A model generated the notes under the pieces. It ran no database searches, was not told the DNA's origin, and saw nothing but the letters and a program-made list of their open reading frames with translations. Made by a program: the position numbers and the translations under genes. A stretch of DNA of 64,000 bases from a virus (Duplodnaviria > Caudoviricetes), in IMG/VR virus record IMGVR_UViG_3300031784_000006, one strand, 5' to 3'. The number at the start of each line of letters is the position of its first letter. Within the stretch, counting starts at the first letter, position 1. Below are positions 62,434 through 62,585 of the stretch, in pieces.

Positions 62434-62585
62434 GGAAAACACAAAACGTGGCGGTGTTTTGTGTTTTCCAAGTTATAGCAACTTCAGAATGGCGGTTCTT
62501 TAGTTGCTAGGTTTGGCATCTACAGAATGGCCGTTCCATAGATACCGATTTGGCAATTATAAAGTGGCGGTTCTATAATTGCCAA
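62434..62585 (-). repeat. Four tandem hairpins with conserved C(C/G)GCCA loops
   Basis: Unrelated stems of 12-15 bp; loops ACCGCCAC, CCGCCA, CGGCCA, CCGCCA. Confidence 0.85.

Follow-up and report, generated by a model that had tools for sequence, protein, structure and literature searches.

Clusters of tRNA genes in phage genomes are usually taken as aids to codon usage, and recent work shows that phage tRNAs also counter tRNA-cutting defenses. In T4, the tRNA cluster also encodes two stable RNAs that are not tRNAs, species 1 and 2 (rnaC and rnaD), which are co-transcribed with the tRNAs and freed by the tRNA-processing machinery. RNase P and RNase Z, for their part, recognize the acceptor/T-arm helix. 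Small RNAs also appear on both sides of the conflict between phages and their hosts. The abiF RNA is RCd22, the RNA antitoxin of the AbiF toxins (bioRxiv 10.1101/2025.04.15.648962), and mimicry of type III antitoxins by phage-encoded RNAs is a well-established means of escape (PMC3475682).

The locus discussed here is an array of four hairpins in a 64,000-nt (64 kb) stretch of viral DNA, which we refer to as the window. The closest cultured relatives of the window are T4-like cyanomyoviruses, for example S-SRM01 and S-CREM1, and among public runs the stretch turns up mainly in metagenomes from lakes or fresh water; its source is therefore an uncultured freshwater cyanomyovirus. The window carries a wcaG RNA, a PhotoRC-II RNA, a group I intron, a glutamine riboswitch aptamer, and eleven tRNA genes, all of the latter on the minus strand. 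No record in INPHARED covers more than a quarter of this tRNA region. Interleaved with the tRNAs are ORFs for a Phd-like orphan antitoxin (59546–59824, minus), a Dps/ferritin-like protein (61191–61652, minus), and a manA-type cupin (61653–61982, minus), as well as a short homing-endonuclease (NUMOD-like) remnant (62904–63110, plus). Downstream of the array lie tRNAs, the manA-like cupin, and Dps. The small ORFs over the array itself are chance frames of only 20–33 aa.

The setting is that of T4 rnaC and rnaD: the array has tRNA genes on either side, is encoded on the same strand as they are, and lies behind a shared promoter. Judged from its sequence, it appears to be a small RNA, other than a tRNA, housed within the tRNA cluster of a phage. 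Read along the minus strand, a promoter-like site of the sigma70 type (TTGACA-N17-TACTAT, the spacer being nearly palindromic; 62684–62656) is followed by a truncated tRNA-like element of 58 nt (62643–62586), then by the array, and then by tRNA-Gly(UCC) (62429–62357; 66.5 bits), the 5′ end of which comes 4 nt after the last hairpin. The original prediction had placed the array between a promoter with a mini-tRNA and tRNA-Gly, and these coordinates bear it out. A second site of the TTGACA-N17-TACTAT type is found at 62833–62861, upstream of tRNA-Leu; this promoter architecture has only two copies in the 64 kb, against 0.15 expected. No terminator-like site was predicted around the array.

The 58-nt element scores 23.5 bits against the Rfam tRNA model (E 0.03), which is below the gathering cut-off of 29 bits, and ARAGORN makes no tRNA call for it (62586–62643). 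Its 7-bp acceptor stem is perfect and its T arm canonical, but the D arm has collapsed and the anticodon stem has 3 bp, with a loop that reads UU-UAU-AA. The related contig L192 and lake metagenomes both show one A-to-G change in the D region of the element. Since the 3′ end of the element abuts the first hairpin, it is presumed to be an RNase Z or RNase P handle that sets the 5′ end of the array RNA. Elsewhere in the cluster, the minus-strand spacers between tRNA-Gly and tRNA-Asn (62245–62356) and between tRNA-Asn and tRNA-Val (62072–62171) are likewise long and rich in structure; L192 has an identical copy of the first and lacks the second, since tRNA-Asn adjoins tRNA-Val there. In tRNA-Leu(UAG), compared between 62685–62767 and L192 3435–3517, the variable arm shows a run of changes and stays paired, and the rest of the tRNA is identical between the window phage and L192.

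The four consecutive hairpins occupy 62585–62434 of the minus strand and are 3–6 nt apart. Hairpins A (62585–62550) and D (62469–62434) both have 14 bp and the loop ACCGCCAC, and they fold at −14.9 kcal/mol (z −6.7) and −17.9 kcal/mol (z −6.2), respectively. Hairpin B (62546–62515) has 13 bp, including three G-U pairs, and the loop CGGCCA closed by A-U (−14.9 kcal/mol). Hairpin C (62509–62476) consists of 8 + 4 bp separated by a 2 × 2 internal loop, with the loop CCGCCA, again closed by A-U (−12.0 kcal/mol, z −5.5). Folded singly, the hairpins thus span −12 to −17.9 kcal/mol with z-scores of −4.3 to −6.7, and 0 of 200 shuffles were as stable. Over a region of 255 nt the minus strand folds at −83.8 kcal/mol (z −9.1) versus −78.5 kcal/mol (z −5.9) for the plus strand. 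This strand preference comes from B (−14.9 minus versus −6.7 kcal/mol plus) and A (−14.9 versus −11.8 kcal/mol), while C and D fold about equally well on either strand.

A covariance model built from the four hairpins, R1, gives them 41–44 bits on the minus strand (A, 43.8; B, 40.7; C, 42.3; D, 41.1) versus 20–26 bits on the plus strand, B dropping to 19.9 bits; run with filters off, it finds no further hairpin in the 64 kb beyond the four. Moreover, on the plus strand the three G-U pairs of B and one of A are replaced by A-C mismatches, which suggests that pairing is kept at the RNA level and on the tRNA strand. Folding and shuffle tests therefore agree with what had been predicted from the letters, namely four adjacent hairpins, of which the one at 62515–62546 pairs fully only on the minus strand. 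The further claim of a structured minus-strand RNA is upheld by the G-U pairs, the R1 scores, and the co-orientation with the promoter and the tRNAs.

Each hairpin carries the loop A-C(C/G)GCCA-Y. The corresponding word, ACSGCCAY, occurs four times on the two strands of the 64 kb, and all four occurrences are array loops, a clustering for which we estimate a chance probability of about 4e-9. The predicted sharing of a C(C/G)GCCA loop is thus correct, and the motif is found nowhere else in the window. The companion claim that the stems are unrelated holds for D, which matches the others at 5–8 of 24 stem positions (the level expected by chance), and fails for A, B, and C, which are identical at 16 of 24 positions pairwise. 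On these identities, A, B, and C are diverged tandem duplicates and the stem of D is unrelated to them.

Two-sided compensatory changes are present in 9 of 13 stem pairs, a figure that 0 of 500 shuffles match, and 92% of the cells are paired versus 70% in shuffles and 36–46% with slid partners. Invariant columns make up 6 of 8 in the loop and 4 of 24 in the stem (Fisher p 0.005). Likewise, A and D are identical at 8 of 8 loop positions and at 7 of 24 stem positions (p 6e-4). Given the two-sided changes and a conservation of the loop that far exceeds that of the stem, structure and loop both appear to be selected; selection on pairing and, separately, on the loop sequence appears to be the simplest reading. 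All of this covariation is that of four paralogues within one genome, and no orthologue of differing sequence adds to it, the other copies found being identical. Collectively, these data suggest that the array is likely functional as RNA, with loop-specific recognition.

Candidate targets of the loops were considered as well. No site complementary to them exists elsewhere in the window. Mimicry of rRNA or antisense pairing with it was rejected, the apex matches of 7–10 nt (E. coli 16S, 23S, and 5S; a cyanobacterial 16S) being those of chance. Pairing with the tRNA-Gly D-loop (AGYGGUA) was rejected too, as loop type and Y do not covary across 114 loci. Loops A and D have a 7-nt complementarity to positions 7–13 of tRNA-Leu, for which we estimate a chance probability among the 11 tRNAs of about 0.1.

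Relatives of the array were sought with pattern scans followed by hairpin filtering (two- and three-loop patterns on IMG/VR; a two-loop pattern on JGI metagenomes and GTDB genomes). The only other carriers found are L192 and L292, two contigs of this freshwater phage lineage, with arrays identical to that of the window, plus identical copies in lake metagenomes. Pattern matches with 36-nt tandem repeats containing GGAACGGCCATTCTGA (L203, L237, L257, and similar metagenome contigs) are chance matches; these repeats lie inside long ORFs and hence encode 12-residue protein repeats, unrelated to the array. A 40-nt repeat in L208 matched the pattern and is also unrelated. Compared with L192, the block 62249–62774 is 98% identical, all differences falling outside the array, and the flanking coding DNA is 87–91% identical. 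Perfect identity spans a whole block of 450 nt, and since linkers and promoter are as identical as the hairpins, this points to a recently exchanged cassette and is not proof of constraint. In three lake DNA runs that cover 62401–62711, changes occur only at 62547 (in the A-B linker) and at 62636 (in the mini-tRNA).

With the 3′ half of the mini-tRNA as search anchor, L192 alone was found. Synteny through the neighboring 2OG-Fe(II) oxygenase gene gave 0 of 53 IMG/VR loci with an array, similarity ending at 63105. R1 found nothing above 14 bits in four cultured relatives, and in 151 phylum-wide and 151 picocyanobacterial-family genomes it returned noise only (24–30 bits), that is, no host counterpart. 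Within these searches, the array is confined to one phage lineage. Among the RNA runs listed, none contains the array; in the lake metatranscriptome X15, a relative's tRNA-Gly and the downstream spacer are covered and 62420–62719 is not. The genome searches also brought up a dispersed 33-nt A/U-rich hairpin repeat that follows a conserved stretch of about 70 nt (L541, L544, and L546, from G318 and G346). It is present in 8 and 21 copies in two small AT-rich picocyanobacterial genomes, has the look of a MITE or of the end of an intron or IS, and is unrelated to the array.

What stands before tRNA-Gly differs from one cyanophage to another. We read the upstream content of about 115 IMG/VR contigs that have the same tRNA-Gly 5′ half, and found the slot either vacant or occupied by small structured RNAs of other kinds. 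In 38 of these contigs the promoter directly abuts tRNA-Gly; processing thus requires no spacer here, and the array counts as optional cargo. An element of about 50 nt sits between the promoter (or a tRNA) and tRNA-Gly at 20 loci (L425 2679–2735 and 19 others; alignment A3). Its outer stem is GGGC/GCCC, its inner stem pairs purines with pyrimidines and shows compensatory changes, and the (ACC)4 loop is invariant. Rfam contains no match to the element, and its loop word ACCACCAC is one base off loops A and D. A third kind of occupant (L414, L417, L420, L423, and others) is a G-rich hairpin within the last 40–110 nt before tRNA-Gly. Its 3′ side runs into CCACCA(UU or CAAU) directly at the tRNA-Gly 5′ end, and it is often preceded by a CCGUGUGAAG hairpin; the copy in L417 has no Rfam match.

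Orphan abiF RNAs (RF03085) fill the slot in several of these contigs and are also encountered, 4–5 nt upstream of a tRNA, in S-CREM1 (52 bits), S-SRM01 (49 bits), and L451 (51 bits). Copies with no abiF gene beside them were mapped to L405 6079–6115, L199 3168–3204, and L451 11169–11205 (49–52 bits), and in L491 and S-SZBM1 the element is recognized by sequence similarity only. On the host side, Abi_2 proteins are encoded in 25 of 301 sampled cyanobacterial genomes, including genomes of about 2 Mb, and one cyanobacterial genome of 1.9 Mb has an abiF RNA about 125 nt upstream of its Abi_2 gene. The orphan abiF RNAs of cyanophages look like phage antitoxin mimics, and it is plausible that at least one kind of slot occupant is an anti-defense decoy. 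The varied occupants, together with the promoter-only contigs, mark the slot as a site at which optional small RNAs appear to be swapped, the array being a rare one among them.

The array itself belongs to no named RNA family, as had been anticipated: with Rfam 15, no family reached its gathering threshold on 62434–62585, and the only hit, mir-290 (17 bits, E 2.3), is noise. Neither ARAGORN nor the Rfam tRNA model finds a tRNA or tRNA-like structure within these coordinates. The abiF RNA, with its 6-bp outer stem, 3-bp inner stem, conserved 11-nt loop, and score of at least 37 bits, is not matched anywhere in the window even when hits with E as high as 10 are admitted, in a search that gives 49–52 bits in relatives. 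Assignment to the type III antitoxin repeats was rejected; the period of 37–40 nt is of the right kind, but the stems share only 5–16 of 24 positions, and TRF reports no tandem repeat on the array even at a minimum score of 30. No cognate endoribonuclease toxin gene lies directly downstream of the array. In a phage mimic such a toxin would be expected to be absent, so that an antitoxin-like way of working is compatible with this finding. A CRISPR-repeat mimic (an RNA anti-CRISPR) would copy one host repeat together with its stem, and here the stems differ between units; a dispersed palindromic element of the REP/MITE type would have further copies, and R1 finds only these four hairpins in 64 kb. 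The repeated common loop on many stem-loops that characterizes the CsrB/RsmZ sponges is present here as four ACSGCCAY loops, none of which contains GGA.

How might such an RNA arise and act? We favor, at somewhat short of an even chance, a model in which tRNA processing releases the array as a small RNA whose four loops serve as a multivalent ligand for one trans-acting partner. The accessory RNA module would comprise about 156 nt (62585–62430, minus) in the 5′ leader of tRNA-Gly, transcribed together with the tRNAs from the sigma70-type promoter. At the mini-tRNA it would be cut by RNase Z or RNase P of the host and at tRNA-Gly by RNase P, and because these enzymes read the acceptor/T-arm helix, the array should be excised as an RNA of about 156 nt, with the tRNA-Gly 5′ end (the RNase P site) defining its 3′ end. 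The working parts would be the four copies of the A-C(C/G)GCCA-Y loop, each on a long stable stem, and a single partner acting in trans would read the loop sequence. This partner would most likely be an RNA-binding protein of the host, for instance a toxin or a defense nuclease, as for RNA antitoxins and phage pseudo-antitoxins; the preference is based on analogy with the abiF RNA and the phage pseudo-ToxI mimic (PMC3475682). In this scenario, the array is possibly a decoy against host defense, an idea to which the orphan abiF RNA in the slot of related cyanophages lends indirect support.

Several observations count for the ligand model: the fold and its strand, the paired changes, the conservation of the loop, the uniqueness of the motif, and the optional nature of the cargo, as well as the abiF RNA in the same slot, Abi_2 in hosts, the Phd-like ORF, and the precedent of type III mimics. 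Counted against it are the restriction to identical copies, the cassette-wide identity, the lack of a host counterpart or of a complementary site in the window, and units that are too diverged for a tandem repeat.

The same position in the transcript could also mean that the array acts in cis, as a leader of the tRNA precursor that provides nuclease entry or blocking (RNase E, III, or J), a folding insulator, or a pause site, the loop being the recognition site of a processing enzyme and not a ligand in trans. Location within the precursor, between two tRNA-type processing sites, fits this explanation, as do the highly structured other spacers of the cluster and searches of the window and of cyanobacterial genomes that gave no trans target. 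However, the motif is absent from those other spacers, four copies of the loop exceed the need of a processing site, and a third of the related contigs, with the promoter beside tRNA-Gly, indicate that this tRNA needs no leader; we regard a role in cis as unlikely, though by no means far-fetched. That the array has no function, or is selfish DNA, a tandemly duplicated palindrome carried on a recombining promoter cassette with its pairing kept for cruciform or hairpin formation or for recognition by a transposase or homing enzyme, we judge decidedly unlikely. Hairpins A–C are clear tandem duplicates, and the step in identity to L192 from block (98–100%) to flanks (87–91%) marks a recently exchanged cassette. 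This cassette is bounded by repeated promoter motifs, comparable to the PeSL shuffling sites described in T4-type phages (PMC2839356, PMC4122927), and the homing-endonuclease remnant at 62904–63110 is near. Drifting DNA, however, is not expected to keep its loop while its stems turn over, the G-U pairs in B and the one in A that mismatch on the other strand place the pairing at the RNA level, and the absence of further copies in 64 kb means that the element is not dispersed.

Two other explanations bear on narrower features of the hairpins. One, a specific form of an idea raised in the original prediction, has the loops imitate the NCCA single strand at the 3′ end of a tRNA (G73-C-C-A) and thereby sequester a factor by which this end is read. 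GCCA is invariant in four of four loops, other slot occupants show CCA-rich single strands (the (ACC)4 loop at 20 loci; the CCACCA tail), and the word ACCRCCAC is found in the (ACC)4 loop as well as in loops A and D. Yet the conserved motif (A-C-S-G-C-C-A-Y) is longer than NCCA, is internal, and has no free 3′-OH. Moreover, the GGU loop of RNase P RNA, the best-known RNA receptor of RCCA, is absent in cyanobacteria, where CCA is detrimental to the activity of the enzyme's RNA (PMC4264200). With only the letters GCCA behind it, this part of the prediction found no support, and we give it little credence. The other explanation, that the region is a regulatory DNA site such as a bidirectional promoter or an operator cluster, derives from hairpin A (62550–62585), which reads as TTGGCA-N18-TATAAT on both strands and matches 11 of 12 consensus positions. 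A match on both strands follows automatically from one palindrome, though; the spacer of 18 nt is suboptimal, hexamers of this kind are missing from hairpins B, C, and D, and compensatory changes in stems are not expected of protein-binding DNA sites. The match in hairpin A is probably due to chance, although antisense transcripts might start from it, whether spuriously or not, and we find a regulatory DNA site scarcely credible.

The reading of the array as a processed multivalent ligand can be taken one step further: it may be a pseudo-antitoxin decoy for an as yet undescribed loop-reading toxin or nuclease of freshwater picocyanobacteria, and the tRNA-Gly slot a place where RNA-only anti-defense cassettes are swapped. 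In this more specific form the proposal is possible but doubtful. The cassettes that it would embrace are the abiF RNA, the (ACC)4-loop element, and the array. If the array and its slot neighbors are indeed RNA-only decoys that the tRNA-processing enzymes of the host set free, the tRNA operon would serve cyanophages as a platform for the expression and maturation of anti-defense RNAs, and gene-centered annotation would miss a layer of the arms race in globally important picocyanobacteria. The four loops also offer a simple handle for finding the partner.

Set beside the systems introduced above, the array shares something with each of them. Like rnaC and rnaD of T4, it is encoded inside the tRNA cluster of a T4-type phage; unlike it, these are single larger folded RNAs and not arrays of hairpins with a common loop, and a relation in sequence would not be expected. 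CsrB and RsmZ resemble it in having many stem-loops with differing stems and one loop motif, through which they titrate one RNA-binding protein. Their loops, however, present GGA in place of ACSGCCAY, the array is phage-encoded and embedded among tRNAs, and CsrA is not, to our knowledge, a known regulator in cyanobacteria. The type III antitoxins (ToxI, AntiQ, CptI, and TenpI) consist of head-to-tail units of about 34–50 nt, comparable to the array period of 37–40 nt, and in both cases several units are carried on one transcript; the phage pseudo-ToxI mimic, moreover, resembles the array in having no adjacent toxin gene. Type III units, by contrast, are near-identical direct repeats that form pseudoknots and are cut by the toxin, whereas the units of the array are diverged hairpins with only the loop in common. 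The abiF RNA differs in sequence and in fold, with its two-tier stem and 11-nt loop. As in the array, however, the motif is a short hairpin (33–37 nt); the abiF RNA uses it in pairs as an RNA antitoxin, and in related cyanophages orphan copies fill the very slot of the array, 4–5 nt before a tRNA.
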